DNA of 64,000 bases from an uncultured Gammaproteobacteria bacterium (GCA_964432675.1 CAYSOG010000002.1:6975-70974), one strand, 5' to 3'; counted from the first letter of the stretch, positions 10,793 to 38,456 are shown. Numbers and translations are program-made. The notes: a model not told the origin generated them from the sequence alone.

Positions 10793-11344
10793 ATGACATC
10801 GGAACGGGATAATCCTATCAATCCTATTTCTCTTAATGAGCCGGCAGTCAGTGAGCCAGAAGACACCAATGAACCAAGTCGGTATGCCCAATTCGACCAG
10901 GCAGTCGACGATTTAGTCGCATATTACCAGGAACTTGCAGTTGAGCATATACCGGTGACTGACCTGTCAGACCTCATCTCAATTGGGCAAGTGCAATACC
11001 AGCAGCGGAATGGTGAGGCAGAAGATGTATTCCAAAGCGTTGGCCTTAAGCTAAATATGCATCGTTATAAGATCAATAAATTCTATGAAAATGCTGCAAA
11101 ATTTGCGTTATTCAACCTTGCAGTAATGCCACGCAATGGAAAAAAAGCCAGACAGTTGCACCTGGCAAGCACCGACCTAAAACCATCATTACGCGCCTTG
11201 TTCGTTTTCAACGAATGGGATGAAAATCCACCACTTGCACGGCAGTTGCGGAAAGGCAAAGGTCACAGTAGTTTGCAAAATGAAGATTTTCAGACACTGC
11301 TGTTGCTTGCGCAACAAAAATTTGAGCCAAAACCCTACGAGTAA
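10793..11344 (+). CDS. hypothetical protein
   Basis: Track ORF 10598..11344 trimmed to the in-frame ATG at 10793 so it no longer overlaps the upstream gene. The start is uncertain. Confidence 0.45.
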   Translation: MTSERDNPINPISLNEPAVSEPEDTNEPSRYAQFDQAVDDLVAYYQELAVEHIPVTDLSDLISIGQVQYQQRNGEAEDVFQSVGLKLNMHRYKINKFYENAAKFALFNLAVMPRNGKKARQLHLASTDLKPSLRALFVFNEWDENPPLARQLRKGKGHSSLQNEDFQTLLLLAQQKFEPKPYE

Positions 11345-11399
11345 TACTGCAACCATAATTCCTTCACATTCCTTAAAACTTCTGGTATTATTAGCACTA

Positions 11400-20978: not shown

Positions 20979-23009
20979 ATGAATATCCTTATTCCATATA
21001 GCTGGCTGAAAGAGTATTTGAAGACGGACTTGGGTCCGAAGGAATTTGCATCGGTTGTTTCATTGTATGGCCCATCAATTGAACGGTGGCATGAAACAGC
21101 AGATAATGACGTCGTCTTTGATGTTGAAATTACAACCAACCGAGTTGATGCTTATTCAGTTTTCGGCATGGCGCGGGAAGCGCATGCTATTTTGCAATAT
21201 AACAACATTCCTTCATCACTTATCGAACCGGAAACACCAGAACTAATCAATCGTTCCGGTGTCAATTATGAACTATATGCAGAAGTCGACCCAGGGCTTT
21301 GTCCAAGGTTTACCGCGATGATCATAGATGGTGTTACCGTCGGCCAATCACCAGACTTTATAAAAGATCGCTTAGAAAAAGTTGGGGAACGATCACTCAA
21401 TAATCTTGTTGATATAACTAATTACTGTATGTACGAACTCGGGCAACCTATGCATGTCTTCGACTACGATAAAATCGTCGGCCACAAAATGGTCTTACGC
21501 AAGAGTAGGGCAGGGGAGACACTCACCACACTAGACAATGTCAAAAGGACACTGCCTGACGGCGCAATTGTTATTGAAGACGCCGAAAAGTTAATTGATC
21601 TCGCTGGTATTATGGGCGGAAAAAATAGTGCTATTGATGAGGAAACAAAACGGGTTTTATTATTTGTCCAAACCTATGATCCGCATACTATCCGCAAAAC
21701 CGCCATGCATCTAGCCCACCGTACCGAAGCTGCTGCCAGATTTGAAAAAGACCTGGACGAAGAAAGCGTATTACCAGCGCTAAAACGGGCCGCTACCATG
21801 ATTACAGAATACGCCGCAGGAACAATAGCAAGCGAACTGATTGATATCTATCCGCGACCCCAAGAAAGCAAAACTGTTTCTGTGCGTTTGGAACAGGTAC
21901 AAGCAACCATTGGTATTGCAATTGAGCCAAACCGCATTGAAACAATTTTAAGTCTTTTAGGATTTGACGTTTTAGAAAATGGCGACACAATTACAGTTTC
22001 TGTTCCAAGCTTTCGGAGTAAAGATATTAGCATTCCGCAAGACTTAATCGAAGAAATCGCACGCATGTATGGCTACCATAATATTCCAGCCACCCTTCCA
22101 GGCGGTCAGATACCAAATCGCCCAGAAAATACCGCAGCAAAACGTATTACCCAAATAAAAATGGCCTTAAAATACCTCGGCTTTACAGAAGTTTATACGA
22201 ATTCAGCAACCGGTAAGGAAAATATCGAAAGCATTGGCATAGACGCAAACCAATGTGTTACTATCAAAAACCCGTTAACCCAAGATTTCGTTTATATGCG
22301 ACCCCATTTATTGGCAACAATGTTACCGGTTGTTGCAGAAAATTTACCCAGGTTTCCAAAGTTAAATATATTTGAACTTTCGCGTATTTACTATCCTAAA
22401 AAAGATGATTTGCCATTTGAAAAAACACTACTGCAAATACTTTCAACTGATCTTAGCGTCTTAGTAATGAAAGGCATTGGCGAAGCATTACTCGGGCAAG
22501 TTGGCATTAGTGCTATCGAAACAAGACCATATACGGATACCGCAAAACTTGACCCAGCCTCGGCCGGGAAAATGTTCAATGGTAAATCCGAACTCGCAAC
22601 TGTTGGCCTTATTGCACCACATATTTTGCAGTCGTTTAATATTTCACAATCACTAACGTCGCTGAACATAGATATCGACCGGTTAATCGAGTTTTCTTCA
22701 GACGCTACTGCTTTCCATCCAATTGCAAAGTACCCGGCTCTCGTAGAGGATATATCTTTCGTGGTCGACCAAGATGAACCAGTTGGACCAATCGTCAACG
22801 CTGTGAGCCGTGCCGACAAACTCATCGTCCAAGTAGATGTCTTAGACATGTTTGCAAGCGGAAGGGTAGGCGAGGGTAATAAATCTATAACCCTACGAAT
22901 ATCATACCAAAGTCCAACAAAATTACTTTCAGAAAAAAATACCGCCAAAGCCCGCCAAAAAGTTGAACATCTTCTCACCAAAACCTTCACCTCCAAAATT
23001 CGTAAGTAA
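20979..23009 (+). CDS. pheT: phenylalanyl-tRNA synthetase beta subunit, missing the N-terminal OB-fold (B2) tRNA-binding domain
   Basis: The B1-like N-terminus runs directly into the TTNRVDAYSVFGMAREA (B3/B4) region. The B5, B6-7 and B8 regions are present. 676 aa, compared with about 790 aa for the canonical protein. Confidence 0.85.
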   Translation: MNILIPYSWLKEYLKTDLGPKEFASVVSLYGPSIERWHETADNDVVFDVEITTNRVDAYSVFGMAREAHAILQYNNIPSSLIEPETPELINRSGVNYELYAEVDPGLCPRFTAMIIDGVTVGQSPDFIKDRLEKVGERSLNNLVDITNYCMYELGQPMHVFDYDKIVGHKMVLRKSRAGETLTTLDNVKRTLPDGAIVIEDAEKLIDLAGIMGGKNSAIDEETKRVLLFVQTYDPHTIRKTAMHLAHRTEAAARFEKDLDEESVLPALKRAATMITEYAAGTIASELIDIYPRPQESKTVSVRLEQVQATIGIAIEPNRIETILSLLGFDVLENGDTITVSVPSFRSKDISIPQDLIEEIARMYGYHNIPATLPGGQIPNRPENTAAKRITQIKMALKYLGFTEVYTNSATGKENIESIGIDANQCVTIKNPLTQDFVYMRPHLLATMLPVVAENLPRFPKLNIFELSRIYYPKKDDLPFEKTLLQILSTDLSVLVMKGIGEALLGQVGISAIETRPYTDTAKLDPASAGKMFNGKSELATVGLIAPHILQSFNISQSLTSLNIDIDRLIEFSSDATAFHPIAKYPALVEDISFVVDQDEPVGPIVNAVSRADKLIVQVDVLDMFASGRVGEGNKSITLRISYQSPTKLLSEKNTAKARQKVEHLLTKTFTSKIRK

Positions 23010-23559: not shown

Positions 23560-26154
23560 CTAGAGGGAACCTTTGACGGTGATTTCTTGACTATCAGTGT
23601 TGCCGCCGCTGTCGACAGCTTGTACCTTAATACGGTGGCTACCAGTATCCGGCAGGTTAATATGGAAACCGTATGGCTGGCTAGTTGTTTCCCCAATTTC
23701 CTTATCATCAATATATGCCGTTATTTTTAAAACTGTAAATCCCTGCGAATTTGCACCAACGGCAATATCAAAACTTTTGGTAACATTTGCGCCATTGGGT
23801 ATATTCGTAATTTGGACCGTTAACGGACGTGGTGACGAAGCATCACACCCTTTAATATACGGCGCTTTTAACAAATCAAGCGGTTGGCTAAAATCCCAGT
23901 TATTAATACCATCTTGCCAACGGTTTTGGCCGTCTTTTGAGACCGGATCGTCTTCCTGAAACCAAACAAGATCTTTCGGCTCAGTCTTACCTTGCGACGC
24001 ATCATCATCAGTGCCAAAATTTGTTGCCTTCCCTTTGCAAACATTAAACCGCTGGTAAAATGGAGAGACTGACTTCGGCTCGGTACCTTTAATAAAATAG
24101 TCCGAACGCATTGGGTCAGAACCATGAGGCAAACCGCCAGTTAAGCTGTCTATCTGCATGGCAACCACATTATCCGGCACTTTACTAAAATCTTCTTTTG
24201 GCATATCAGCCAAGATCGCTTTGGTTACTCTATTCCATATTGGTGAGGCACCGGTAACACCCGAGGAAATTTTCGGGTCCATCACGCTACCATCGTTATT
24301 ACCAACCCAAACACCAACTGTTAGCGATGGGGTATAACCAACCGTCCAATTATCTTTCTTCGAATCAGTCGTACCAGTCTTTACCGCAACAGTGCGGTTT
24401 GGTACCACCAATGAAGAACTCGGTCCAAAGGCTGCTGTCCTGGCGCTGTTATCAGATAATATATGAGATATTAAAAAGGCAATTTCTTTTGACAAGACTT
24501 GCTTCGAGGACTGGTGTTTTTCCTCAAAATAAGTTTTCTTACCCGAAGCATCAGTGACCTTTAATATTGCAACCGGATCGTGCTTAACCCCTTGCGCTGC
24601 AAAAACGCTATAGGCATTCACCAATTGCAAAAGCGTTAATTCCCGGCCCCCTAAAACGAGTGACAAGCCGACGTCTTTCATATTATCGGAAGTTGGTTCC
24701 CAGTTCGTAATACCCATATCAAAGGCTTGCTGCATGACATCACGGATGCCAACACGGGCAAGCGTCTTGACCGCTGGAATATTATATGAATTACCAAGCG
24801 CATAACGGACAGCTGTAGGCCCATGGAACTTGCCATCGTAGTTAACGGGTTTGTAATCGGCTTGACCACCGCCGAGCGGAAATGTCGTTGGCACATCCAT
24901 AATAACCGAAGCAGGTGCGTATCCTTTTTTGAATGCAACGGCGTAAGTAATTGGCTTTGTTGACGAACCAGGCTGCCGTAATGCCAAGGCTGTATTAACA
25001 TTTGACTCAAAAACACAGTTCGAACCTTCCACACAACCATTCGGCTCTGATTTGCCAAAGTAATCTTTACCGCCAACCATTGCAAGAATATCACCGGTTT
25101 TTGGGTCCATTACCACAACAGCGCCGTTGGCTACCTTGTAAGCTTTAAGTTTTGCAATTTCCTCGGTAACCGCCTGTTGGGCGATGTCTTGCATTTTTAA
25201 GTCAAGTGATGTGGTCACCCGTAAGCCGCCTTCTTGGACCTGTCGTTGGCCGAATTGTTGCTCTAAGAGTTCCTTAACGTACATCACAAAGTGCGGCGCT
25301 TTAATACTAATATCAGCAGGCGAAAATTTGACTTGTCCATTGTTAATTTGGGCCAGCGCCTGTTTTTCTTGGTCAGCCGTAATGTATTTGTCTTCCCGCA
25401 TGCGACGCAAAACATACGCGGTACGGTCTTTGTATGCATTCGGGTGATTGCCAAGCGGTGAATAATAACTTGGCTCCTGCGGCAATCCTGCTAAAATCGC
25501 CGCTTCAGCTAACGACAAATCTTTCACATGCTTCCCAAAGTATTGTTGACTTGCCGCCTCAACACCGATGGCTGTCCCACCATATGGTGCTTCGTTCAAA
25601 TACATCTGCAAAATCTGGTTTTTGGAAAACTTATTGTCGACTTGGACAGCCAAGAAAAACTCTTTCAGCTTTCTTGTAACTGTCCGCTCAGGAGAAAGCA
25701 AAGTATTCTTCACAAGCTGCTGTGTTAGTGTTGACCCGCCGGTAAGCTGGTGGTGCAATACAAGGTTAAAGGGTATACGCAAGAGCCCAGCAGGATCAAA
25801 ACCGGCATTTTTGTAGAAATTTTTATCTTCGGTGGCGATGGTGGCTTCCTGTAAATACTTCGGTACTTGGTCAATCGTGACGAGTTGGCGATTTTGGTCG
25901 TTAAAAACATCGAATAGTAGTTGGCCATTCCTATCGTAAATTTTAGTTGAAAGCGCTTCTTCTTGTTCGCGCGAGGAAAGTTTATCCGGGCTCGGTAAAT
26001 CTTTGGCGAAAAAGGCAAATGCACCGATAAAGAAAATGAGACCAAAAATGGCAGCGCCAAAGGCTAAGGTGGTGAGGAAAGCGATCATGCGCAGCCGTTG
26101 TTGTTTTGCCCGGCGCCTGCGGCTAAATTCTAAACGGTTGTAGTAGTCAGCCAT
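23560..26154 (-). CDS. mrcA: class A penicillin-binding protein 1A (glycosyltransferase plus transpeptidase) with a C-terminal Ig/fibronectin-like extension
   Basis: GT51 motifs (EDKNFYKNAGFD, GGSTLTQQL) and transpeptidase motifs (SSTKP, SYN, KTGTT). Confidence 0.9.
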   Translation of the reverse strand: MADYYNRLEFSRRRRAKQQRLRMIAFLTTLAFGAAIFGLIFFIGAFAFFAKDLPSPDKLSSREQEEALSTKIYDRNGQLLFDVFNDQNRQLVTIDQVPKYLQEATIATEDKNFYKNAGFDPAGLLRIPFNLVLHHQLTGGSTLTQQLVKNTLLSPERTVTRKLKEFFLAVQVDNKFSKNQILQMYLNEAPYGGTAIGVEAASQQYFGKHVKDLSLAEAAILAGLPQEPSYYSPLGNHPNAYKDRTAYVLRRMREDKYITADQEKQALAQINNGQVKFSPADISIKAPHFVMYVKELLEQQFGQRQVQEGGLRVTTSLDLKMQDIAQQAVTEEIAKLKAYKVANGAVVVMDPKTGDILAMVGGKDYFGKSEPNGCVEGSNCVFESNVNTALALRQPGSSTKPITYAVAFKKGYAPASVIMDVPTTFPLGGGQADYKPVNYDGKFHGPTAVRYALGNSYNIPAVKTLARVGIRDVMQQAFDMGITNWEPTSDNMKDVGLSLVLGGRELTLLQLVNAYSVFAAQGVKHDPVAILKVTDASGKKTYFEEKHQSSKQVLSKEIAFLISHILSDNSARTAAFGPSSSLVVPNRTVAVKTGTTDSKKDNWTVGYTPSLTVGVWVGNNDGSVMDPKISSGVTGASPIWNRVTKAILADMPKEDFSKVPDNVVAMQIDSLTGGLPHGSDPMRSDYFIKGTEPKSVSPFYQRFNVCKGKATNFGTDDDASQGKTEPKDLVWFQEDDPVSKDGQNRWQDGINNWDFSQPLDLLKAPYIKGCDASSPRPLTVQITNIPNGANVTKSFDIAVGANSQGFTVLKITAYIDDKEIGETTSQPYGFHINLPDTGSHRIKVQAVDSGGNTDSQEITVKGSL

Positions 26155-26385
26155 AATGAGCAGCCCAAAGAGACTTTGGTTCTATTTCTTATTCTAGCAT
26201 GCCAGACCAACAATTGTCTGTGAGGCTCATTTCTGGTAGAATTGACAATGAAAAGTAAAATTGCTAACTTTTCTTTATCATCATAATCTGGCTTACTAGC
26301 CTGAGAACAATTGCATGGAGTTACAACAATTACTCAGCTTAACAAGCTCCCAGCGGGAGCCAAACAGTTTAGGTAACGGTCTGAA

Positions 26386-26400
26386 GGAAAATTTTTTAGT
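26386..26400 (+). repeat. Leader half of the inverted repeat flanking tRNA-Tyr
   Basis: GGAAAATTTTTTAGT. It is complementary at 14 of 15 positions to the trailer ACCAAAAAATTTTCC (26473-26487), so the 7-bp acceptor stem could extend to about 22 bp. Confidence 0.6.
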
Positions 26401-26476
26401 CCAGGGTTGGCAGAGCGGTTGATGCGCGGGTCTGTAAAACCCGTTTAGCCTGGTTCAACTCCAGGGCCCTGGACCA
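26401..26476 (+). tRNA. tRNA-Tyr (anticodon GUA), class I with a short variable loop and encoded CCA
   Basis: Folded by hand. The acceptor CCAGGGT/GCCCTGG has a C1-G72 pair, the discriminator is A73, and 3-prime CCA is encoded. Anticodon stem CGGGT/ACCCG with loop CTGTAAA. The variable loop TTTAG is 5 nt. T-arm CCTGG-TTCAACT-CCAGG. Confidence 0.85.
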
Positions 26477-26487
26477 AAAAATTTTCC
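26473..26487 (+). repeat. Trailer half of the inverted repeat flanking tRNA-Tyr
   Basis: ACCAAAAAATTTTCC pairs with the leader at 26386-26400. Confidence 0.6.
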
Positions 26488-26661
26488 TGCGAGAGCTTCA
26501 CACTACTGAAATTACTGTATCAGTAGTACTCCATTCCCTAAAACTATCATATCTTAGAAGCGACTCCTATCTGTAGGACATCACCCTATAGTACTTGCAA
26601 AATATTTCGATATCGAGTAGACTATCTCTTCAGTAGTACACTAACAAATAGGAGGTGTGGT

Positions 26662-27045
26662 GTGGCCACGCAATCAACCCCTCATTTGTGGGAAGTAAAA
26701 CATCCCTATTATTGCGACCAAAGCGATGACAATAAAGAATATGATTCATGGGATGACTTTGTAAACGAGGTGCAGAACCAAGCTCAGGACTACGATCCAC
26801 AGCGTAACCTGATATTTAGGTGGGATTGGATCTCACCAGACAGTCCTGATTATGAGGCTGACCTTTATAGCGATGGCTACACTGGTGACAGACTTACATT
26901 GTTTGTTGTTCTGCAACGAAAGGCTAGGGTAGCAAGCTGGGAAATTAAGGTTACAAAAGAAAACGAACAGGCAATTAAATCTTGGTTGTCCGAACGGGCC
27001 AAGCATATTACTGCACTCTGGACACCAATCCAAATTGCTTCGTAA
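26662..27045 (+). CDS. hypothetical acidic protein (127 aa)
   Basis: GTG start 5 nt after AGGAGGTG. A terminator follows. Confidence 0.55.
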   Translation: MATQSTPHLWEVKHPYYCDQSDDNKEYDSWDDFVNEVQNQAQDYDPQRNLIFRWDWISPDSPDYEADLYSDGYTGDRLTLFVVLQRKARVASWEIKVTKENEQAIKSWLSERAKHITALWTPIQIAS

Positions 27046-27063
27046 AAAAGCAATAAAAACTAT

Positions 27064-27095
27064 AGCCCCCTCCATTTTGCAGGGGGCTTTTTTAT
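27064..27095. terminator. bidirectional Rho-independent terminator
   Basis: AGCCCCCT ... AGGGGGCT stem with T-runs on both strands, between two convergent genes. Confidence 0.7.
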
Positions 27096-27175
27096 GGTTA
27101 TTTTTTCTTAATTAACGGATAGAAAACAAAAGTGAAGAGAGTATTGGCAATCTTTAAAGCATGACTAATTTCTGG

Positions 27176-29884
27176 TTACTTGGACAAAAAATAGTCATTC
27201 CCGAATGCCTTTGTAAAGGCTTGGGTATTGGCTTTAGTGTTGTTAACTGTCCAGTCGATGTCACCGTCTTTGGTATTGAACCAGACGACTGCTTTAATTG
27301 CCGGGTGTTTTTCGATATAACCGGCTAATAACTGCATCCATTGTCCCTTCGATTGCCCCGGCACGTTAGAATCGGCGCTGGCTGTTTCGGTAATTATGAT
27401 AGGCTTATTGAATTTTTCAATATCAGAAACCGTTGGCGAAAACATTGCTGTAGGCGTTCGAAACCCATTGTTTTTGTAATAACCGTTCCAGTTAAACGAG
27501 CTGACACCAACCCAGTCAACATAGTTATCTCCTGGATAAAATGCATCGATATTTGACGAATAAGGAACCTTTTGTTCGTCATACTTTTCATTTGGTGACC
27601 ACACCCAAGTAACATTAGTTGCACCAACTGATTGGAATATGTCATGGACATGTTGCCATGCCGCGATATATTCCTGCGGCGTATTATACGTGCTACCCCA
27701 TGGATACCAATTACCATTCATTTCATGGGCAAACCGTATCATAACCGGCTTTCTGTACGCTTTAACATCTTTTGCATACTGGGTGATGTAGGCATCATAT
27801 AAGCCTTCCGAAATTAGTTTCATGCGATATTGCTGTTGGTTGGCATCGTTGTCGCTTCTGTTATACCCATTAACCGGTTGCCAAGGTTCCCAAGTAACCA
27901 TTGGTATCGAGTTTTGGCTTGCAATATAATTTGACCACTGTTGGTTGAAGCGGTTATCTTTAACGCCCCAAGCTTGGTAATAGCCAACAATCGCGAAATT
28001 CTTGCCGAATTGGTTCTGTAAGCCCACAAGGGCATCACTGTCATTATGGTTATAAAGGGAAACGCCTACGAGTGAGCCTTCATTTGGCTCCTGGACTTTG
28101 CCCGCTAACGGCGTATTGCTGGTGGTAAATGTCGCTACTGTAAACGATGGTGCAAAGAAAGCTTCAGCCAACTTCGCCCGATCTGTGTAGGCAAAAGCCA
28201 AACTAACCATGACGACACAGGCAAAGCTAAAGCTCACCCCATACCGTATCAGCCGCCAGGCTATTTGATATGACGTAAGGTAAGCATAGACGCCATCCCA
28301 ATAAATACTGAGCGATACCGCGAGCAAAGTAAGAACGTTAAAAAGTGCCCAAAAACGTAGTTGGACCGCGCCGTGGTTTTGGATACAACTGACGATAAGC
28401 GCATATGCTGTTAAGGAGATAAGGATAAGATGTGGCAAAAACGTTTTAACGGGTACCCGTTGTTGTTTTGCGGTACTGCCTTTTTGGGTTACCATATAGC
28501 GCAATTTGATACCGGTAATGAAATTAAAAAAGGCAATGGCATAGATAATGTTCGCGCCAAGGTTTAAGAACATACCAAGCGGCCCTAATAACGGTTCGTT
28601 TTCCGGGTCAATTTGGAAGCGATGGGTATAAAGCTGAATAACATTGGCTAGCAAGAATGGTGGAAAAGAATAGGCAAGCCATTGTTGCAATTGCATATTC
28701 GCATCACGAAGGCCAAACAATAGATAAAGTACTGTCAAGAATATGCCAAACAGAACGGCAAGGCCAGTAAAGTAATAGAGTTGCGCCAAGCAGTAGTTAA
28801 TTTTTTGTTTCAATGGTAAATGCCAAACAATTCTCGGTGTATGTTTGAATAATATTTCAAACAACCCATAGCTCCAGCGCATTTGCTGATTAAAATAGTC
28901 TACCCAATTTAAAGGTCCTTCGCCCTTGGCAATAATTTCTGGCACAAAAACACCCTTATAACCGTATTTGTAAAATAACATGCCGGTTAAATGGTCTTCT
29001 ACAATAGTCGGCGCATAGCCGCCAATTTTTTTCATCGCAGAAGCCCGATAAATATGGCTTGTCCCTATTAAAAATGGCATGTCACAACCGTAAAAGCCTT
29101 GCTGCATTGGCCCATGAAAGAAAAATGACTGCTCACCGGCACCCCGGGCAATCCAGTTTTCAGTGTTCTTATAAAACTGTGGTGTGCCGACAAAACCAAC
29201 TTTTTCATCACGAAAGTAACCAAGTGTCCGTTCAAAAAATTCAGGTTCCGGCACATGGTCCATGTCTATCTGGGCGACAATATCATAACTATCTTCGTGC
29301 TTATCACGCCAGGCATTGTGGTTACCCGCTTTTGTCTTGGTACGGTATATGCCAGATTCCTGGTTATACTTTGCAATACCTTTTCTTGAAAAATGTTTAA
29401 CTCCTAAGCGTTCGCATAAGGCCTTCACTTCTTTATCATTGCCTTCATCCAATACCCACGTATCGTGTGGATAGCGAACCTTAAGCATGGCACATAGGGT
29501 GTCTGAAAGCATGTCCAAAGGTTCCTTACCGGGTACATAGCAGGTTAAAAAGGCAACACGAAGCCCTTTTTGAGGCCGTAAGTACTTTGGTTTTGCCATA
29601 AACCACAAGGCAAACCAACTAGCAACGCGCAAAAGCATGCCCAAAAAGACAACTGAAGAAACGATTATGAAAAGAATAAGGTCAAATGCGTGGGATGATA
29701 AAATACTGGTTCCTTGAAAGTTTTGGGGAATATGCTCTGGCTTAAACCACCATAATGCATAACGGATGACAAAAAAGAAACCTAAACTGATTAAGCCGGC
29801 ATAAACTGCCCGCTGTTTTTTAGTAAAGACAGCGACCTTTTCAACAGACACAGTATTGGTGGGTTGACGTTTCTTAAATAGCAT
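27176..29884 (-). CDS. Membrane-embedded family-2 glycosyltransferase (processive, cellulose-synthase-like) fused to a C-terminal extracytoplasmic GH26-like (clan GH-A) glycoside hydrolase domain
   Basis: Two N-terminal TM helices, a GT2 core with DxD-type motifs and QQMRW (QxxRW), a further block of TM helices, then a hydrolase domain with RFAHEMNGNWYPWG, WVWSPNE and IIITETA. Confidence 0.75.
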   Translation of the reverse strand: MLFKKRQPTNTVSVEKVAVFTKKQRAVYAGLISLGFFFVIRYALWWFKPEHIPQNFQGTSILSSHAFDLILFIIVSSVVFLGMLLRVASWFALWFMAKPKYLRPQKGLRVAFLTCYVPGKEPLDMLSDTLCAMLKVRYPHDTWVLDEGNDKEVKALCERLGVKHFSRKGIAKYNQESGIYRTKTKAGNHNAWRDKHEDSYDIVAQIDMDHVPEPEFFERTLGYFRDEKVGFVGTPQFYKNTENWIARGAGEQSFFFHGPMQQGFYGCDMPFLIGTSHIYRASAMKKIGGYAPTIVEDHLTGMLFYKYGYKGVFVPEIIAKGEGPLNWVDYFNQQMRWSYGLFEILFKHTPRIVWHLPLKQKINYCLAQLYYFTGLAVLFGIFLTVLYLLFGLRDANMQLQQWLAYSFPPFLLANVIQLYTHRFQIDPENEPLLGPLGMFLNLGANIIYAIAFFNFITGIKLRYMVTQKGSTAKQQRVPVKTFLPHLILISLTAYALIVSCIQNHGAVQLRFWALFNVLTLLAVSLSIYWDGVYAYLTSYQIAWRLIRYGVSFSFACVVMVSLAFAYTDRAKLAEAFFAPSFTVATFTTSNTPLAGKVQEPNEGSLVGVSLYNHNDSDALVGLQNQFGKNFAIVGYYQAWGVKDNRFNQQWSNYIASQNSIPMVTWEPWQPVNGYNRSDNDANQQQYRMKLISEGLYDAYITQYAKDVKAYRKPVMIRFAHEMNGNWYPWGSTYNTPQEYIAAWQHVHDIFQSVGATNVTWVWSPNEKYDEQKVPYSSNIDAFYPGDNYVDWVGVSSFNWNGYYKNNGFRTPTAMFSPTVSDIEKFNKPIIITETASADSNVPGQSKGQWMQLLAGYIEKHPAIKAVVWFNTKDGDIDWTVNNTKANTQAFTKAFGNDYFLSK

Positions 29885-29952
29885 TACATTACTATCAACT
29901 ATAGGTCGAAATTATACACTATTATAGGATAAAAGTCAACAGAATGAAGAGC

Positions 29953-31119
29953 TTAAAAGGAAGGCCGGTATATCGGAGAAGAAATCGAAGAAATAAACAA
30001 ATTAAGTGTACTTGGTGATATGTCTATAAGCCAATTTACGTTTTCTTGTTGTGACCGATCTTCGTTGTAAAAGACAACTGCTTGGATATGGGGGAAATTT
30101 GCGGGCACTTGCACTTGGAGCATATCTTTATACCAAGTACTTTTATCGCCACCGCGATCAGTCGTATTAACTTCGGCTAGCATAATTGGTTTAGTAGGGG
30201 AGAGGGCAATGAGTTCATTGTACGGCTCTCGGAAAACAGTTGCAAAGCTTTGCCATTGGCTCCATGACTGTGTGGTACCCCAGTTATATCCATCCACACC
30301 AAGCCAGTCAACGTTGGCATCCCCAGGATACAATGTTTTATAAGGAATACTTTGGTCATTCCCTTTATTGGGTGCAAAAACCCACAACACTTTGGTGGCA
30401 TTCTCAGAAGCAACGATCGAATGAAAACGTTGCCAAGCTGCTATAAAATCTTCTGGGGTATCATGAGTTTGCAGTGGACTCCAGGCAGTTGTTGGTAAGT
30501 TCATTTCCCAGGCAAACCGTAAAAAGATTGGCTTGTTAAATGTTGCTAAATTATGACCCACGGTATGTAAGAATGCGTCACAATTGCCATTTGCAATCGC
30601 TTTATAAAGGCTCAAGCCATTACTCTGGCACTGCGAAAAAAAGTATGGATTAATACTTAGCATCGGCCGCCAGCCATATTGGGTAATGGTGTTAAGCTCA
30701 CCGACAATAGCATCGGAGGCCAGTGCGTCCCATCCCCGATAGTAATGTGCAATAGCAACATGTTTCCCGATTTTTTGTTCGACCAATTGTAATTGATCAG
30801 GGTGTAGTGTTTTTGCATTGTCGTCCCAAAAACCCTGCGTCCACATGCCAAGATAAACCGCCCTGGTAGTCTCTACTGGCGGCTTAAGAGCTACCAGCTT
30901 ATTCGCTGGCGCAATACTAGCAACAGATTGCGTAGGGCTCGGTGTAGTCGCTATGGCTTCGCCTCTAACCGCTGGTGAAAATGTCGGAAAGTTACCGGCG
31001 CTCATAGGAGTTGTCGCACGATACTTACCGTACCATAGCACTGAGGTTACCCCAACGAGCAAAACAAAAGCTGTAAACAAAATAAGATGCTTGGGAAGCA
31101 TCATCCGTGAAAATCTCAT
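29953..31119 (-). CDS. secreted or membrane-anchored GH26-like glycoside hydrolase, paralog of the C-terminal domain of the upstream fusion
   Basis: Signal-anchor, then RFAWEMNLPTTAWSP, LWVFAPN and IMLAEVNTTD motifs parallel to the fusion protein's hydrolase domain. Confidence 0.7.
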   Translation of the reverse strand: MRFSRMMLPKHLILFTAFVLLVGVTSVLWYGKYRATTPMSAGNFPTFSPAVRGEAIATTPSPTQSVASIAPANKLVALKPPVETTRAVYLGMWTQGFWDDNAKTLHPDQLQLVEQKIGKHVAIAHYYRGWDALASDAIVGELNTITQYGWRPMLSINPYFFSQCQSNGLSLYKAIANGNCDAFLHTVGHNLATFNKPIFLRFAWEMNLPTTAWSPLQTHDTPEDFIAAWQRFHSIVASENATKVLWVFAPNKGNDQSIPYKTLYPGDANVDWLGVDGYNWGTTQSWSQWQSFATVFREPYNELIALSPTKPIMLAEVNTTDRGGDKSTWYKDMLQVQVPANFPHIQAVVFYNEDRSQQENVNWLIDISPSTLNLFISSISSPIYRPSF

Positions 31120-31227
31120 CTCCTTTTATGACCTTCATAATACATTTGTAAACCGAATGCAACCAAAAAATTTTGCGGTTGCATTTTTATTCCAGATTGC
31201 AGTAGAGTAGACAAAAGGAGAATTTTT

Positions 31228-31686
31228 ATGACGAAACAAATTGCCATTATCAGTATTTTGTGCCTATCTCTTACCGCTTGTAGCTTAGGTATTCGCAGCC
31301 GACTCAAAAGCCTAACCGGCACGGCTGCTTCACCAACGGCTAGCGTATCACCAACAACATCTGCAATGGCTTCAGCAAGCAGCGCTGCGATGCAGGCCAC
31401 AACAGCACCACAGTCGAAAACTACCATAACATATACGTCTAGTGGTTTCTCGCCGGCAACACTCACCATCAAGGCAGGTGACAGTGTTACATTCGTTAAT
31501 CATGCAACAGGTGACGTCCAAGTGAATTCCGACCCACATCCGACACATACACTGTATCCAATGCTTAATATCGGTGTTATTACAGCCGGATTATCGTCTG
31601 ATCCAGTAGCCTTCACAAAGGCGGGCACGTACACCTATCATAACCACCTAAACCCAGCCCAAAAGGGGACAATTGTCGTCCAATAG
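31228..31686 (+). CDS. lipoprotein with a cupredoxin-like beta-sandwich domain
   Basis: Lipobox LSLTAC, an Ala/Ser/Thr linker, then a C-terminal domain (TLTIKAGDSVTFVNHATGDVQVNSDPHPTH...GTYTYHNHLNPAQKGTIVV). There is no Cys ligand, so copper binding is doubtful. Confidence 0.45.
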   Translation: MTKQIAIISILCLSLTACSLGIRSRLKSLTGTAASPTASVSPTTSAMASASSAAMQATTAPQSKTTITYTSSGFSPATLTIKAGDSVTFVNHATGDVQVNSDPHPTHTLYPMLNIGVITAGLSSDPVAFTKAGTYTYHNHLNPAQKGTIVVQ

Positions 31687-31745
31687 AGGCCTTGCTTAGG
31701 CAGTAATGCTCCTAGTCTATGGTACAATAGCTTGGGAGAAATGGT

Positions 31746-31949
31746 ATGGTGTGGCTAACTGTTTACAAAAAAGTATTTTCACCACTTTTTTATAGCTTGG
31801 GGTTTCGTTGCCGATTTGAACCGAGTTGTTCGGAATATTTTCAACAGGCTACCCAAAAGTACGGGCCATTTAGAGGTTCAGTAAAAGGCATGTGGCGAAT
31901 TTTACGCTGTAATTCATTCAATCCTCATTTCGGCTATGACCCAGTGTAA
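31746..31949 (+). CDS. yidD: membrane protein insertion efficiency factor YidD
   Basis: [10 protein letters not shown]...[17 protein letters not shown] is the YidD signature. Confidence 0.8.
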
Positions 31950-31957
31950 GCTGGCTG

Positions 31958-32461
31958 GTGATCCCGCCTTCGCTAATTCCACAGACTTGCGCGATAACAG
32001 CAAAACTTGCTACAATTTTCGCTATGGCTATAGAACGTGCACAACAAATTCCAATTGAAGACATTACAGAACTTGTTCATCTTGCAGGCGGCGAAACTGC
32101 CGGACCAATGGCTGACGAAATCGACCAGATCAACTGTTATGCTGGGCTGGTAGTCGGTGTCGCCTCAATCCAAGACGAGCAATGGCAATCAACGGGATAC
32201 TGGAAAATTACTTTAGATTCTGGCCTAATCATTACAAGCAGCTCATATCGCGCCCAAAACTGCTTATTAGACGATCGTGTTAGGTTTTTCGAGCTGCCTG
32301 AAGATGCTGACTGTTACACGGAATATGAAAAAACAAACCATGTTGGTATTTCTATAACACGACATGGCACTTACGTTGACATCATGCATGTTGCTCGCGA
32401 GCAAATAATATTACCGCAACCACAAACCGCTGACGAAAATACCCGCACGTCACCAGATTAA
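31958..32461 (+). CDS. hypothetical protein
   Basis: 167-aa ORF. The start may be the internal Met (MAIERAQQ). Confidence 0.5.
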   Translation: MIPPSLIPQTCAITAKLATIFAMAIERAQQIPIEDITELVHLAGGETAGPMADEIDQINCYAGLVVGVASIQDEQWQSTGYWKITLDSGLIITSSSYRAQNCLLDDRVRFFELPEDADCYTEYEKTNHVGISITRHGTYVDIMHVAREQIILPQPQTADENTRTSPD

Positions 32462-32464
32462 GGC

Positions 32465-33628
32465 TTGTTTCTTTTAAAAATCCCATTTACAATGAGGGCT
32501 ATGACGCAAGAAGAAAAGCGCGCACTTATCACCCGAAATCTTGACGAAGTTCTAACTCCCGAAGAATTAAACCACCTTTTATCTACAAATACTCCCTTAA
32601 AACATTACATCGGTTTTGAGCTATCCGGACAAATCCACATTGGCCAAGGGCTCGTGACTGCCATGAAGATAAAGGATTTCCTTGACGCCGGCGTTGACTG
32701 CACTATCTACTTAGCCGACTGGTTTAGTTGGATTAATGATAAGCTAACCGGCGACTTAGACATTATCCAAAGCGTTGGGGTTGCATATTTTAAAAATGGG
32801 TTTACAGCCTGTTTGCAAGCCCTAGGCGCTGACCCAACGAAGGTCCACTTCGTTACGAGTACTGAGTTGTACAAAAACAGGTTAGACTATTGGCAAAGTG
32901 TTATTGAAATTTCAAAAAATACTACGTTGGCTCGCATGATGCGGTCGGTTTCGATCATGGGACGCACTGAAGGCGAGGGTATGGACTTTGCCAAGCTTAT
33001 TTATCCGCCAATGCAGGCAGCCGACATCTTTCTTTTACAAGCCAACCTAGCGCATGCCGGTATGGACCAACGGAAAGCCCACGTTATTGCCCGTGACACT
33101 GGTTTACAAATTAAAACGAATAAACTAACTGATGCCAAAGGCGAACAGATCAAACCCGTGGCCTTGCACCATCATCTTCTTTTAGGCCTAACGCCGCCAC
33201 CAAAATGGCCAATGGCCAAGGAAGAATTACAGCAAGCACTTTCAGAAATGAAGATGTCAAAGTCAAAGCCTGGGTCTGCCATTTTTATTACCGATGAGCC
33301 AGAAGAAATCCGCCAGAAACTAACCAAAGCCTTTTGTCCAGAAAAGGAAACTGTATACAATCCTGTGCTAGATTGGACTAAGCATCTTATATTTCCCCTT
33401 CGTAACGGTATCCAGATAAATCGTGACGAAAAATTCGGAGGAAATGTGTCGTATTCGTCCTACCAAGACTTAGAAAAGGATTTCCAAGAAGGCGCACTAC
33501 ACCCAATGGATCTTAAAACTGCAGTCGCCGAAAGTTTAATCGAAACTCTCGCGCCAATACGAGACTACTTTAGTAATGACCCAGCTAAATCAACCTTAGA
33601 CAATCTCAAGAAAATTCTCCAATCCTAA
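32465..33628 (+). CDS. tyrS: tyrosyl-tRNA synthetase of the archaeal/eukaryotic type
   Basis: Class I aaRS with a HIGH-like motif (GQIHIGQG) and KMSKS. It aligns along its length with the Methanocaldococcus jannaschii TyrRS as I recall it: HYIGFELSGQIHIG vs AYIGFEPSGKIHLG; IYPPMQAADI..GMDQRKAHVIARD vs IYPIMQVNDI..GMEQRKIHMLARE; EKFGGNVSYSSYQDLEKDF..ALHPMDLKTAVAESLIETLAPIR vs EKFGGDLTVNSYEELESLF..ELHPMDLKNAVAEELIKILEPIR. The Tyr-specifying Y and D are conserved. The true start is probably an internal Met (MRAMTQ or MTQEEK). Confidence 0.85.
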   Translation: MFLLKIPFTMRAMTQEEKRALITRNLDEVLTPEELNHLLSTNTPLKHYIGFELSGQIHIGQGLVTAMKIKDFLDAGVDCTIYLADWFSWINDKLTGDLDIIQSVGVAYFKNGFTACLQALGADPTKVHFVTSTELYKNRLDYWQSVIEISKNTTLARMMRSVSIMGRTEGEGMDFAKLIYPPMQAADIFLLQANLAHAGMDQRKAHVIARDTGLQIKTNKLTDAKGEQIKPVALHHHLLLGLTPPPKWPMAKEELQQALSEMKMSKSKPGSAIFITDEPEEIRQKLTKAFCPEKETVYNPVLDWTKHLIFPLRNGIQINRDEKFGGNVSYSSYQDLEKDFQEGALHPMDLKTAVAESLIETLAPIRDYFSNDPAKSTLDNLKKILQS

Positions 33629-34012: not shown

Positions 34013-34441
34013 TTGCACACGGCAATTGACTGCACTGGTGGTGACCGGAAAAGATTGCGCGATGAAGAACTTATTCGTAGCGTACTTACCAAATTGCCCC
34101 GACGTATGCGCATTATATCATTAACCACGCCGATTGTTCTGCCAAGATGCTTTAACGACGTAAAAATTAATGGCAAATTGCAACGCGTCCCAACGGAAGA
34201 TTTATCTGGCTTTGTCCTGACTGAAGAAGGCCATATTGCAATACATACTGAGCCTGCACTTGGCAGCGCCTGGATTGATATTTTCCATAGCAGCAATACT
34301 TTGCTTCAAGCATGCCTTTCTATTATTACCGATACATTTGTATTTACTTCTCTACAAACTAAACTAATCAGAGTTCGCAGCCTTGATCCAGCTGATATTG
34401 GCGTTAGGATAACTGTTGAGCAAGAAAATACTGAATCATGA
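34013..34441 (+). CDS. S-adenosylmethionine decarboxylase-like (SpeH fold) protein lacking the pyruvoyl-precursor serine
   Basis: Aligns to small archaeal/bacterial AdoMetDC: N-terminal MH...GGD..L.D.E.I, then DLSGFVLTEEGHIAIHTEPALGSAWIDIFHS against the canonical [31 protein letters not shown]. ESH is replaced by EGH. Confidence 0.65.
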   Translation: MHTAIDCTGGDRKRLRDEELIRSVLTKLPRRMRIISLTTPIVLPRCFNDVKINGKLQRVPTEDLSGFVLTEEGHIAIHTEPALGSAWIDIFHSSNTLLQACLSIITDTFVFTSLQTKLIRVRSLDPADIGVRITVEQENTES

Positions 34442-34462
34442 CCAAAAAACAGGGGAAAGGAA

Positions 34463-34888
34463 ATGCATGCTCTTTTCAACGGCTCAGGCGGGAAAGAGGA
34501 ATACTTGGATGACGAAGATCGCGTGAAGAAAGCGCTCATCGCAGTACCTGAAAGTTGTGGCCTACTGGCACTGACAAGACCAAAAGTCTTACGTTATGCA
34601 CCCACGCAATTACTCAAAGAAGTAGACCCTCTACAACCAGTCGTTTGGGATGGTATTTGTGGCTCAATTTTTTTAGTATCGGGCAGATTTTCAATTTACA
34701 CGTTTCCAGCCAAGCAATACTTGTGGGCAGACCTTTTCAGTTTGCTTGACTTTGACACCATGGTAGCATTCGCAACGCTCCATGAGTATTTTCCGAATAC
34801 AAACTTCGATGTCGAAATCAACAAACGCGGACTGCCTTTGTTTGAACAAATGCCTGTAGTCGCACAGCAAACCAGAGAAAGGGTTTAG
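34463..34888 (+). CDS. S-adenosylmethionine decarboxylase-like protein, divergent paralog lacking the catalytic serine
   Basis: MHALFNGSGGKEEYLDDED...GICGSIFLVSGRFSIYTFPAKQYLWADLFS. The ESH position reads SGR. Confidence 0.55.
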   Translation: MHALFNGSGGKEEYLDDEDRVKKALIAVPESCGLLALTRPKVLRYAPTQLLKEVDPLQPVVWDGICGSIFLVSGRFSIYTFPAKQYLWADLFSLLDFDTMVAFATLHEYFPNTNFDVEINKRGLPLFEQMPVVAQQTRERV

Positions 34889-34892
34889 GCAC

Positions 34893-35729
34893 ATGTGTTG
34901 TTCGATGCATCCGGCCAGTTTTAGCGAGACGATCGTCTATGTCGGGGAGCAATTTCATCCAAAATATGGCTTGGTCCATGTTATGGCCTACCAAAACACC
35001 GCGATTAACTACAACGCAGGCCCGAATGCCATGATCTTGCATATACCCGGCCAAGGGATGACGCAAGACAACTTTATTGATACTGGTGACTGTCGGTCAT
35101 TTCTCAAAGACATGGTACAAGCCCTTCAGCCACCGCGCCGCGATATACTGTTGGGCTCACGAAGCATCGCGTTTGCTAGCCTCGCACCAGTACAAGTCTT
35201 CGAACATGACATTTATACCGTTGTGCTTTCTGAAGACGCTTCGCTTATTCCGCAAGCGCTAAGCCGTGTACCCGAAAACAAACGGCCGGCCGCTAACCAG
35301 CCGTTGTTTGACTTCTACGCGCGGGAGTGGCCAAACTGGAGTGTTGCACTTTGCTGTTTTGACAATAAGCAGGCTGCAAAAGCGGCACCACTTATGGTCT
35401 GGTACCATCCGCTTGCAGAAGACACCCTGCATTGGCCATCAATTGACAGCCACACCGGTGAGGTACCAAACTTGCACGGCATGGTTGCGGTCGAACACTG
35501 GATAATCGGCGGATCCCACCGTATGACGGAAGAGATTGGTGTACCAGTACGTTATCGCGGTGGCTGTTCACCTGACGTTACGGCGTTTTTGCCAGATCGC
35601 GTTATCGGCATGAATTACAATTTCCCGATGCAAAACGGCGATTTTGTTATCGACACCGAAAAGCTCGTTCAAGGCAATGCTGGCAGCATTCTTCGCGTAC
35701 CAGCACCAAGTGTTGCAAACATAATTTAA
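34893..35729 (+). CDS. hypothetical protein (278 aa) embedded in the AdoMetDC-like cluster
   Basis: ORF with no recognisable motifs. The start may be an internal Met (MHPASF). Confidence 0.5.
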   Translation: MCCSMHPASFSETIVYVGEQFHPKYGLVHVMAYQNTAINYNAGPNAMILHIPGQGMTQDNFIDTGDCRSFLKDMVQALQPPRRDILLGSRSIAFASLAPVQVFEHDIYTVVLSEDASLIPQALSRVPENKRPAANQPLFDFYAREWPNWSVALCCFDNKQAAKAAPLMVWYHPLAEDTLHWPSIDSHTGEVPNLHGMVAVEHWIIGGSHRMTEEIGVPVRYRGGCSPDVTAFLPDRVIGMNYNFPMQNGDFVIDTEKLVQGNAGSILRVPAPSVANII

Positions 35730-36329: not shown

Positions 36330-38456
36330 TTGCACACGCAAGGTCCCTTTACTCTTGAATTCTTCCATGATACGCTAGGCGGTATGTTATCCAAAGACAC
36401 ACCAATTGCAGCGCTTGCTGGCATTGGGCCGACGTATGCCACAAAATTACAAAAACTTCATATTTTTACGGTTGGTGATTTGATTGAACATTATCCATTC
36501 CGCTATGAAAATTATGCATCAATAAAATCAATTGCCGAAACCAAAATAGGGGAGGAGGTTACAATAATTGGCACGCTTTGGGAAATTAAGAATGCTTATA
36601 CTCGCAATTACCGCATCAAAACAATTACCAAAGCACTCATCCATGACGGTAGCGGTACCATTGAAGCAGTCTGGTTTAACCAATCTTACCTTACTAAAAA
36701 TCTCCAAGCCGGTATGGAAGTTAGCCTTTCAGGTAAGCTCAAGCAAAACGGCTATAAATTGCAGCTTGTTTCGCCAGCCTACGAAATCTTAAAGTCCAAT
36801 CGCGAGACTGTTAATACCGGCCGCATTGTCCCAATTTATCCAGAAACAGAAGGGGTCACGTCACGCTGGCTAAGGACAAAGATTGCCCAATTGCTTCCAC
36901 AAATTAACCAAGATGTAACTGACTGGCTGCCGCGCCAAATTATCGAAAAAGCAGACCTATTACCGTTAGACGACGCATTGCAAAAAATCCATTTTCCTAA
37001 TGCAAAAGACGATATTATCCAATCACGAAAACGCATTGCCATTGACGAACTTCTAAAAGTCCACCTTACCGCACTAAAGCGCAAACAAGAATGGGAAGGT
37101 AAAAGCCATGGCCATGCATTTGTCATTGACCAAAAAAAAGTCCAGGACTTTATCGCACGTTTACCTTTCACATTAACAAAAGCCCAGTATCGTGTCATAG
37201 ATGAAATATTGGCTGACCTAAAAAATGATACTGCTATGAACCGCTTATTAGAAGGCGATGTCGGTAGCGGCAAAACGGTTGTCGCTGCAGTAGCAATGTA
37301 CATCGCTTTCTTAAATGGTAGACAATCAGCCATTATGGCGCCCACTGCCATACTCGCCCAGCAGCATTTCCAAACGCTTTCTAGTCTCTTAGAACCTCTT
37401 GGGTTAAAAGTCGCCCTTCTTACCGGTGGGAAACAACCAAAAGCTTCTGGTGACCAAAAATTACAAGCTTCAAGTTTCAAGCTTCAAGGAATGGATATTG
37501 TCGTTGGCACGCATGCTTTACTTTCCGAATCAACAAAGTTCAAAAATCTCGGATTTATTGTAATAGACGAGCAACATAAATTTGGTGTCGAACAGCGGGC
37601 ACTACTGCACCTCAAAGGCATAACACCACACGTTTTAACGATGACCGCAACACCAATACCCAGAACGCTTGCCCTAACACTCTATGGGAACCTTGACCTT
37701 TCTGTTTTGGATGAGATGCCAGTTGGCCGAACAAAACCGAAGACGTTTGTGGTGCCTCAGCAAAAACGACAAGATGCATACAATTTCATTGCCAAGGAAA
37801 TTACAGCAAAAAAAGTCCAGGCGTTTATTGTTTGCCCATTAATCGAGCTATCGGAAACGTTTAATACCGCAAAAGCAGCAACTGTAGAATACGAAAAACT
37901 CTCGACGGAAATTTTTCCGCAACTGCAACTTGGCTTACTCCATGGGCGCATGAGCTCCAAGCAAAAAGAAGAAACCATGGCAAAATTTCGAAGCCAAGAA
38001 CTTGATATTTTAGTTGCCACACCATTAGTCGAAGTAGGCGTTGATATTCCACATGCCACCATTATGGTCATAGAGGCAGCTGACCGGTTTGGCCTTGCCC
38101 AATTACACCAACTTCGCGGCAGAGTAGGCCGTAGGGAAGGGCAAGACGCGTTTTGCTTTTTATTTACCGAGCTCATTGGCGAAGAATCAATCAAACGGTT
38201 GCGGTCCATGGAAAAAATCTATAGTGGATTAGAACTAGCCGAAGTCGACCTACAATACCGCGGCGCAGGCAATATCTTTGGGACTGAGCAGCATGGCATT
38301 GCAACATTTAAGGTCGCCAAATTATCAAATCTCAAATTAATTGAGCAAACCAGAAAACTTGCGCAACAAATTTTTACTGACTACTACGAAAAAGGGGACC
38401 AAGAAGTCAAGGATACCGTTGATCGCTTTGACAAACGTTTAATCGAACCAAATTAG
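36330..38456 (+). CDS. recG: ATP-dependent DNA helicase RecG
   Basis: Wedge/OB domain, then helicase motifs (GDVGSGKTVVA, DEQHKFGV, TATPIPRTL, arginine finger QLRGRVGR). The start may be an internal Met (MLSKD). Confidence 0.9.
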   Translation: MHTQGPFTLEFFHDTLGGMLSKDTPIAALAGIGPTYATKLQKLHIFTVGDLIEHYPFRYENYASIKSIAETKIGEEVTIIGTLWEIKNAYTRNYRIKTITKALIHDGSGTIEAVWFNQSYLTKNLQAGMEVSLSGKLKQNGYKLQLVSPAYEILKSNRETVNTGRIVPIYPETEGVTSRWLRTKIAQLLPQINQDVTDWLPRQIIEKADLLPLDDALQKIHFPNAKDDIIQSRKRIAIDELLKVHLTALKRKQEWEGKSHGHAFVIDQKKVQDFIARLPFTLTKAQYRVIDEILADLKNDTAMNRLLEGDVGSGKTVVAAVAMYIAFLNGRQSAIMAPTAILAQQHFQTLSSLLEPLGLKVALLTGGKQPKASGDQKLQASSFKLQGMDIVVGTHALLSESTKFKNLGFIVIDEQHKFGVEQRALLHLKGITPHVLTMTATPIPRTLALTLYGNLDLSVLDEMPVGRTKPKTFVVPQQKRQDAYNFIAKEITAKKVQAFIVCPLIELSETFNTAKAATVEYEKLSTEIFPQLQLGLLHGRMSSKQKEETMAKFRSQELDILVATPLVEVGVDIPHATIMVIEAADRFGLAQLHQLRGRVGRREGQDAFCFLFTELIGEESIKRLRSMEKIYSGLELAEVDLQYRGAGNIFGTEQHGIATFKVAKLSNLKLIEQTRKLAQQIFTDYYEKGDQEVKDTVDRFDKRLIEPN

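Follow-up and report, generated by a model that had tools for sequence, protein, structure and literature searches.

Bacteria from the Candidate Phyla Radiation (CPR) that combine a C1-G72 tRNA-Tyr with a tyrosyl-tRNA synthetase (TyrRS) of the archaea/eukarya type have been described by Mukai, Reynolds, Crnkovic, and Soll (2017; Life 7:8; PMC5370408). The groups named there are Parcubacteria, Microgenomates, Dojkabacteria, and Katanobacteria, with DPANN archaea proposed as donors; many of the CPR C1-G72 tRNA-Tyr keep a variable arm, and some are without one (PMC5370408). A TyrRS gene (tyrS) and a tRNA-Tyr gene that resemble these are found in a 64 kb stretch of one contig (GCA_964432675.1, CAYSOG010000002.1:6975-70974), referred to below as the window; the scans for further tyrosine genes reported here covered these 64 kb. 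Both genes are intact, fit one another, lie among bacterial genes, and are co-inherited in a family-level clade. The source is very probably a CPR bacterium, likely a Microgenomates-like one, that would charge tyrosine with an archaeal-style pair. The two genes are:

26401..26476, plus strand: tRNA-Tyr(GUA), class-I-like (ARAGORN; Rfam tRNA, 47.9 bits; drawn cloverleaf)
32501..33628, plus strand: tyrS, archaeal-type TyrRS of 375 amino acids (NF006330, PDB 2cyc, motifs, contact residues)

The longest tyrS open reading frame (ORF), 32465..33628, starts with TTG and encodes 387 amino acids, and there is a further in-frame ATG at 32492. The database twin of the protein (P0001) begins at the ATG at 32501, giving 375 amino acids, and GAGGG is found directly upstream of that ATG; residue numbers for the window TyrRS refer to this 375-residue form unless the 387-residue ORF is stated. 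An earlier note on this DNA, made from the sequence, held that the enzyme is not of the bacterial type, and profile searches agree: the NCBIfam model NF006330 (PRK08560), a TyrRS model with archaeal nearest solved relatives, scores 423.2 bits (cut-off 220), and the bacterial tyrS model TIGR00234 gives 110.7 bits, under its cut-off of 113.8. The trpS model (91.1 bits, cut-off 176.75) and the other trpS models also stay under their cut-offs. Among solved structures, the best match is the Pyrococcus horikoshii enzyme (2cyc; 444 bits, residues 19-376 of the 387-residue ORF), with 172 bits for Methanocaldococcus jannaschii (1j1u) and 28 bits for the bacterial enzyme of Thermus thermophilus (1h3e). 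Pfam detects the class Ic core (PF00579, residues 42-362 of 387) and nothing else; in particular, no S4-like C-terminal domain was found by Pfam in the window TyrRS, which aligns along its length with the 375-residue 2cyc. A TrpRS or other class Ic paralogue is ruled out by the model scores together with the residues Y32 and D158 (M. jannaschii numbering), discussed below.

The same note had aligned the protein end to end with the M. jannaschii enzyme. The archaeal type stands, but the end-to-end fit does not: identity is 42% over 306 positions, and relative to M. jannaschii the window TyrRS carries two insertions (14 and 16 residues) and extends 18 residues further at its C terminus. Its subtype is the longer, P. 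horikoshii/DPANN-like one, to which it is closer than to M. jannaschii.

Contact residues were read from an alignment of M. jannaschii TyrRS (the copy used was verified as identical to 1j1u_A), the window protein, and 120 homologues. M. jannaschii Y32, Y151, Q155, D158, and Q173, which we take to be tyrosine-binding positions, are identical in the window TyrRS and in 121 of 121 aligned relatives. They include the tyrosine-recognizing Y and D singled out in the earlier note, and KMSKS itself, near the further matching block listed there, is intact as well (K251-M-S-K-S255). F261, H283, and D286 of M. jannaschii, presumably the positions in contact with G34, are kept as F312, H334, and D337. In M. 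jannaschii TyrRS, C1-G72 is read by R132, R174, and K175 (Tsunoda et al., 2007, PMC1934993); these are kept as R148, R191, and K192. With the contacts for tyrosine, C1-G72, and G34 all conserved, the enzyme is predicted to have what reading the identity elements of this tRNA-Tyr requires.

Two positions are atypical. The HIGH motif reads HIGQ (H46-I-G-Q49), its fourth position being T or S in relatives and H in M. jannaschii; and where the ADWHSWIND block has its His (H70 in M. jannaschii, a pocket position altered in engineered variants), the window TyrRS has F75. This position is His in 119 of 121 relatives and, among the sequences compared, Phe only in this organism. In addition, Y70 stands where most sequences have Phe (L65 in M. 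jannaschii). An altered amino acid specificity by way of H70F or HIGQ was considered and set aside, as both leave the residues binding the hydroxyl of tyrosine unchanged.

For the tRNA, ARAGORN calls two genes in the window, tRNA-Tyr(gta) at 26401..26476 on the plus strand and a tRNA-Val, and Rfam RF00005 matches 26401..26473 at 47.9 bits (gathering score 29; E 3.8e-7). The acceptor stem of the tRNA-Tyr is composed of C1-G72, C2-G71, A3-U70, G4-C69, G5-C68, G6-C67, and U7-G66; the discriminator is A73, the anticodon is GUA, and the CCA is encoded in the gene. The variable region is UUUAG, 5 nt in a 73-nt body: short (class I), without a long arm. A tRNA-Tyr(GUA) at these coordinates, with a 5-nt loop, C1-G72, and A73, had been proposed in the earlier note and is recovered by ARAGORN, by Rfam, and by direct reading; its fold shows the short variable loop, C1-G72, and GUA. 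It carries the archaeal/eukaryotic identity set: C1-G72, A73, and GUA, with a short variable loop. That this set is matched to the enzyme, as was also suggested, agrees with the conservation of R132, R174, and K175, and the matched residues and the tRNA identity set together favor its reading as a putatively functional archaeal-style tyrosylation system.

Comparison with relatives gives the same picture. When the tRNA-Tyr genes of six short-loop relatives are compared, pairing in the cloverleaf is 100%, 9 of 20 pairs show compensatory double changes, and C1-G72, C2-G71, and A73 are constant across the six short-loop genes. The two orthologues on contigs of close relatives (L081 and L082, described below) are of the same short-loop C1-G72/A73 type, with pairs 3:70 and 5:68 changed compensatorily; among the three orthologues, only the window's encodes CCA. 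More broadly, all 14 tRNA-Tyr genes detected next to a tyrS of the archaeal type have C1-G72.

The window's tRNA-Tyr is also enclosed by an inverted repeat:

26385..26406, plus strand: 5' arm, 22 nt, consisting of a 15-nt leader and the first six acceptor-stem bases (repeat search)
26467..26488, plus strand: 3' arm, made up of the acceptor strand on the 3' side, ACCA, and a trailer of 12 nt (repeat search, fold)

The repeat is 22 nt long and 95% complementary. Base pairs form between the leader AGGAAAAUUUUUUAGU and both the trailer AAAAAAUUUUCCU and the bases A73, C74, and A76, making the acceptor helix about 15 bp longer, and the minimum-energy fold of 26380..26495 forms this extended stem (-52.2 kcal/mol, z -5.9). 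Position 26386, where the interval given in the earlier note begins, falls in the leader that pairs with the trailer, outside the tRNA. One would expect the leader-trailer helix to impede normal processing by RNase P and at the 3' end. A role as a conserved processing signal was rejected, since the repeat is absent in L081, L082, and the window's tRNA-Val. At the gathering threshold, Rfam shows only the two tRNAs in the window, and no T-box or other known RNA regulator.

Genes of bacterial type surround the pair, as the earlier note had also observed, and are present all along the window. Those with mapped positions are:

23560..26154, minus strand: PBP1A, bacterial peptidoglycan synthase (Pfam Transgly and Transpeptidase)
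31746..31949, plus strand: yidD, bacterial membrane-protein insertion efficiency factor (Pfam PF01809, 77.7 bits)
31958..32461, plus strand: orf167, middle gene of the tight same-strand run yidD-orf167-tyrS
36330..38456, plus strand: recG, conserved downstream neighbor and taxonomy marker (NCBIfam RecG, 799 bits)
11220..12698: thrS, bacterial-type
20979..23009: pheT, bacterial-type

The start codon of PBP1A is 247 nt from the tRNA-Tyr gene. The genes for PheS, PilC, PilB, and IF-3 are likewise of bacterial type, and the window includes a run thrS-infC-pheST.

GC content is even across the window. For tyrS it is 0.439, and at third codon positions (GC3) 0.441, as compared with 0.440 ± 0.026 and 0.408 ± 0.042 for 15 neighbors; with no compositional signal, a recent transfer of tyrS was rejected. 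Three contigs of relatives (L081, L082, and L088), each from a different sequencing run, encode TyrRS 69-75% and RecG 65-69% identical to those of the window. The full order in L082 is PBP1A, tRNA-Tyr, a variable stretch, yidD, tyrS, recG, nusB, rnc, rpsP, trmD, pilONM, and L081 and L088 keep the portion of it covered by their contigs. The order yidD-x-tyrS-recG is kept in L082 and L088; in L081, an S-adenosylmethionine (AdoMet) decarboxylase gene is found between tyrS and recG, as it is in the window. The same tRNA-Tyr is kept in L081 and L082, which reach far enough upstream. It adjoins PBP1A in the window and in L082, and in L081 the gene next to it at the equivalent position is truncated and lacks an annotation. 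On the strength of the matching composition, the shared gene order, and the same tRNA in relatives, the TyrRS/tRNA-Tyr pair is a stable, vertically inherited part of the window's clade.

These observations also bear on another explanation, in which an assembly or binning error placed a fragment of a DPANN archaeon in a bacterial contig. CPR and DPANN organisms are found together, cross-contamination of composite genomes does at times occur (a point of caution in Mukai et al., PMC5370408), and the nearest named TyrRS homologues are indeed from DPANN. However, bacterial genes flank tyrS on both sides of the same contig, 39 nt and ~400 nt away; its composition is that of its neighbors; three independent assemblies again show yidD, tyrS, and recG in this order; and the matching tRNA is found by PBP1A in the window and L082, and by the truncated gene at the same position in L081. 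Mis-assembly is effectively excluded.

As to the host, the named RecG homologues among the top 120 (51-54% identity) are from the Patescibacteria group, the Microgenomates group, and Candidatus Gottesmanbacteria, with two more labelled "bacterium." PheT is without some 156 N-terminal profile positions (B1/B2), a loss noted for CPR bacteria (Mukai et al., 2017, PMC5370408). ThrRS, at 492 amino acids, has the class II core and anticodon-binding domain only, with no TGS or editing domain detected. Reduced ThrRS and PheT architectures of this sort are typical of small-genome bacteria. The host is probably a Patescibacteria (CPR) bacterium, and a Microgenomates-like one.

The stretch between the tRNA-Tyr and yidD-tyrS (26662..31686) differs among relatives, with other genes filling it in L081 and L082. 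In the window it holds a 902-amino-acid cellulose-synthase-like GT2 protein fused to a C-terminal GH26, a second GH26 protein (388 amino acids), a cupredoxin-like protein, and a 127-amino-acid ORF without a family. Downstream of tyrS, at 34013..35729, are tandem AdoMet decarboxylase-like paralogues (142 and 141 amino acids) followed by a 278-amino-acid ORF, which matched no family and is the most GC-rich of the neighborhood (0.505).

The TyrRS homologues with names, at ~57% identity, are from DPANN archaea and one from Moraniibacteria; no relative above 57% was found in the GTDB representative genomes and JGI metagenomes searched, the best match being 56% in both. A phylogeny, proposed as a check in the earlier note, was calculated by neighbor-joining (201 sequences, 60 bootstrap replicates) and gives a clear answer for its shallower part only. 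The window TyrRS forms an 11-member clade with ten unnamed sequences (bootstrap 60/60), for which one NCBI contig and Logan assemblies are the only sources; deeper nodes have 0-17% bootstrap support. Outside this clade, the closest TyrRS whose genomic context can be read are archaeal by their neighboring genes (L083, with L21e, Rpb4, and Pus10; L086, with PolD and Cdc6). In the tree, the TyrRS of other CPR bacteria are placed apart from one another among those of DPANN, a scatter consistent with, but no proof of, the multiple transfers that Mukai et al. propose (PMC5370408). An apparent 18-tip "bacterial" TyrRS clade was discarded: its bootstrap support is 0/60 and at least one of its members is archaeal (P0092/L086). 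No specific donor is claimed.

The tRNA carries a different kind of information about origin. Its D-arm, UGGCAGAGCGGUUGAUGC, has a 3-bp stem and a GAGCGG loop, and matches the D-arm of the CPR long-arm C1-G72 tRNA-Tyr genes (L003 and L002). It also matches the D-arm of E. coli tRNA-Tyr and is unlike that of M. jannaschii, AGUUCAGCCUGGUAGAAC. The D-arm comparison, with M. jannaschii as its one archaeal tRNA-Tyr, did not support archaeal descent of the tRNA body. It is suggestive only of a body that may be bacterial rather than archaeal, and concerns origin, not function.

From these pieces a sequence of events can be proposed. Lateral transfer from DPANN-like archaea would have brought the tyrS gene into an ancestor within the CPR. 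The incoming enzyme, a DPANN/Pyrococcus-like TyrRS without an S4-like domain, would read C1-G72, A73, and G34 instead of a long variable arm. The bacterial-type D-arm makes descent of the present tRNA from the resident bacterial tRNA-Tyr likely; that tRNA would have inverted pair 1:72, and would later have lost its variable arm once the arm was not needed. The archaeal-type pair would now be the cell's only tyrosine-charging system.

Alternatively, the archaeal-type tyrosine identity could have been inherited vertically from a very early ancestor, with no lateral transfer, an idea raised in connection with LUCA (life's last universal common ancestor) by Mukai et al. (PMC5370408). The deep nodes of the TyrRS tree, being unresolved, would allow this, and the pair is old enough for full amelioration and for synteny within the clade. 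The CPR TyrRS are nevertheless scattered among DPANN sequences and form no single bacterial clade: one of the five sequences closest to L085, a Moraniibacteria-labelled locus, is P0081, which is named as Pacearchaeota (d 0.37), and the nearest sequence to L059 is a Nanoarchaeia locus (L065). The tRNAs argue in the same direction, since a bacterial-type D-arm, along with forms that still keep the variable arm with C1-G72 (L002, L003, and L087), indicates conversion of a bacterial tRNA. Retention from so early an ancestor thus seems highly improbable, and lateral transfer of tyrS followed by conversion of the resident tRNA is the history we prefer.

The two genes are about 6 kb apart in the window, and their linkage was surveyed in 16 bacterial-labelled and 71 archaeal loci (1.02 Mb), not all of them independent, with tRNAs called by ARAGORN (including its intron mode). 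A C1-G72/A73 tRNA-Tyr is located 0.1-6.3 kb from an archaeal-type tyrS at 10 of the 16 bacterial-labelled loci, in at least six lineages. The linked forms are short-looped in the window, L081, L082, L010, L012, L013, and L014, and keep the variable arm in L002, L003, and L087. No credible linked tRNA-Tyr was found by ARAGORN, intron mode included, at any of the 71 archaeal loci. The one call there, an intron-mode "tRNA-Tyr" at 13004..13119 of L043, has G1-C72, C73, and a 43-nt intron inside the anticodon, and is almost certainly a mislabelled other tRNA; even counting it, and bearing in mind that the loci are not all independent, the bacterial versus archaeal difference has a Fisher p of ~2e-8. 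There are four further linked cases in metagenome contigs, one with the tRNA gene only 9 nt upstream of tyrS; the loci listed with linkage, at distances of 9 nt to 6.3 kb, include L094, L097, L099, and L166. One short-loop tRNA type (GGCAGAGCGG ... GGUCUGUAAAACC ... UUCGACU), ~80-85% identical, is found beside TyrRS that are 33-75% identical to each other.

It is conceivable, if on balance doubtful, that C1-G72 tRNA-Tyr and archaeal-type tyrS make up a linked two-gene module in CPR bacteria, a natural orthogonal pair that stays together and possibly moved from lineage to lineage as a unit. A tRNA-Trp/TrpRS-A operon is described by Mukai et al. (PMC5370408), with nothing there on Tyr linkage. 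Such a module, if true, would explain how a resident synthetase can be replaced by one with the "wrong" identity rules, and should linkage of the tRNA with tyrS prove general, it hints at the way in which such replacements come about.

Some of the surveyed loci have features of their own. In L012 (9062..12994), L013 (2647..7111), and L014 (8831..11613), labelled Saccharibacteria or "bacterium," tyrS lies inside a tRNA cluster in the order tRNA-Thr(UGU), tRNA-Tyr, tyrS, tRNA-Thr(GGU), with tRNA-Trp next in L012 and L013; tyrS there looks inserted beside the resident tRNA-Tyr of a classical bacterial cluster. In the Moraniibacteria-labelled L085 (10001..13995), a second class Ic synthetase gene (345 amino acids) is found 1.8 kb downstream of the archaeal-type tyrS, which is preceded by resolvase/recombinase genes, a hint of a mobile context.

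Several points weigh against an archaeal-style pair, acquired from archaea, as the means by which this bacterium charges tyrosine. Tyrosylation by the pair is predicted from sequence alone. The enzyme has two atypical pocket or motif positions, H70 to F (unique among 121) and HIGH to HIGQ. Host taxonomy depends on one marker, RecG, and on CPR-like domain losses. The deeper nodes of the TyrRS tree are poorly supported, and more than one direction or number of transfers is compatible with it. Finally, only 64 kb are visible, and a bacterial TyrRS or a G1-C72 tRNA-Tyr elsewhere in the genome is possible.

The last of these points is the starting place for another interpretation, in which the pair is an accessory one (for stress or inhibitor resistance, for example) beside a canonical bacterial TyrRS and tRNA-Tyr outside the window. 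Coexistence of this kind is described for TrpRS-A and tRNA-Trp(A73) by Mukai et al. (PMC5370408), and a view limited to the 64-kb window is compatible with it. Within those 64 kb, however, there is no second class Ic gene at E < 4 in an unfiltered profile search and no second tRNA-Tyr by ARAGORN, and the pair is in a housekeeping neighborhood and conserved with it in relatives. CPR genomes, moreover, are small and usually have one copy of each synthetase. For TyrRS, what Mukai et al. describe is replacement and not coexistence (PMC5370408). An accessory role is accordingly unlikely, though less so than retention from an early ancestor, and we continue to regard the pair as the probable basis of tyrosine charging in this organism.

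Among the known systems, the window pair may first be set beside the canonical bacterial one. It has in common with the TyrRS of T. thermophilus (1h3e) and its class II tRNA-Tyr the reaction, the class Ic Rossmann core, and the GUA anticodon; the bacterial enzyme, in contrast, binds the long variable arm by a C-terminal S4-like domain and reads G1-C72, and the window pair has neither. With the M. jannaschii pair (1j1u), used as an orthogonal pair for code expansion in E. coli, it shares the logic of C1-G72, A73, and G34 and the conserved contacts, and differs in its 42% identity, the two insertions and C-terminal tail of the protein, and the D-arm of the tRNA. It may be considered a natural example of an M. 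jannaschii-like pair inside a bacterium; bacterial hosts of archaeal-type pairs, and C1-G72 tRNAs with bacterial bodies, may serve as starting points for orthogonal pairs, a prospect of modest interest. The TyrRS of P. horikoshii (2cyc) and of DPANN archaea are more similar, sharing a length of ~375 amino acids, the insertions that M. jannaschii lacks, and the blocks ADWHSWIND, KMSKSKP, and HPMDLK, but the host of the window enzyme is bacterial, the His of ADWHSWIND is Phe, and HIGH is HIGQ.

The CPR systems of Mukai et al. are the closest: host, DPANN-like TyrRS, C1-G72 tRNA-Tyr, and the existence of arm-less forms are all alike, and the difference is that the TyrRS of the window lineage shares no more than 57% identity with any named sequence and falls in an 11-member clade of its own. 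The window pair is another instance of the phenomenon described in 2017, in a poorly sampled clade, and not a discovery. That tRNA identity rules are not tied to a domain of life is a principle already made then; the window adds breadth to it, from another poorly sampled CPR lineage.

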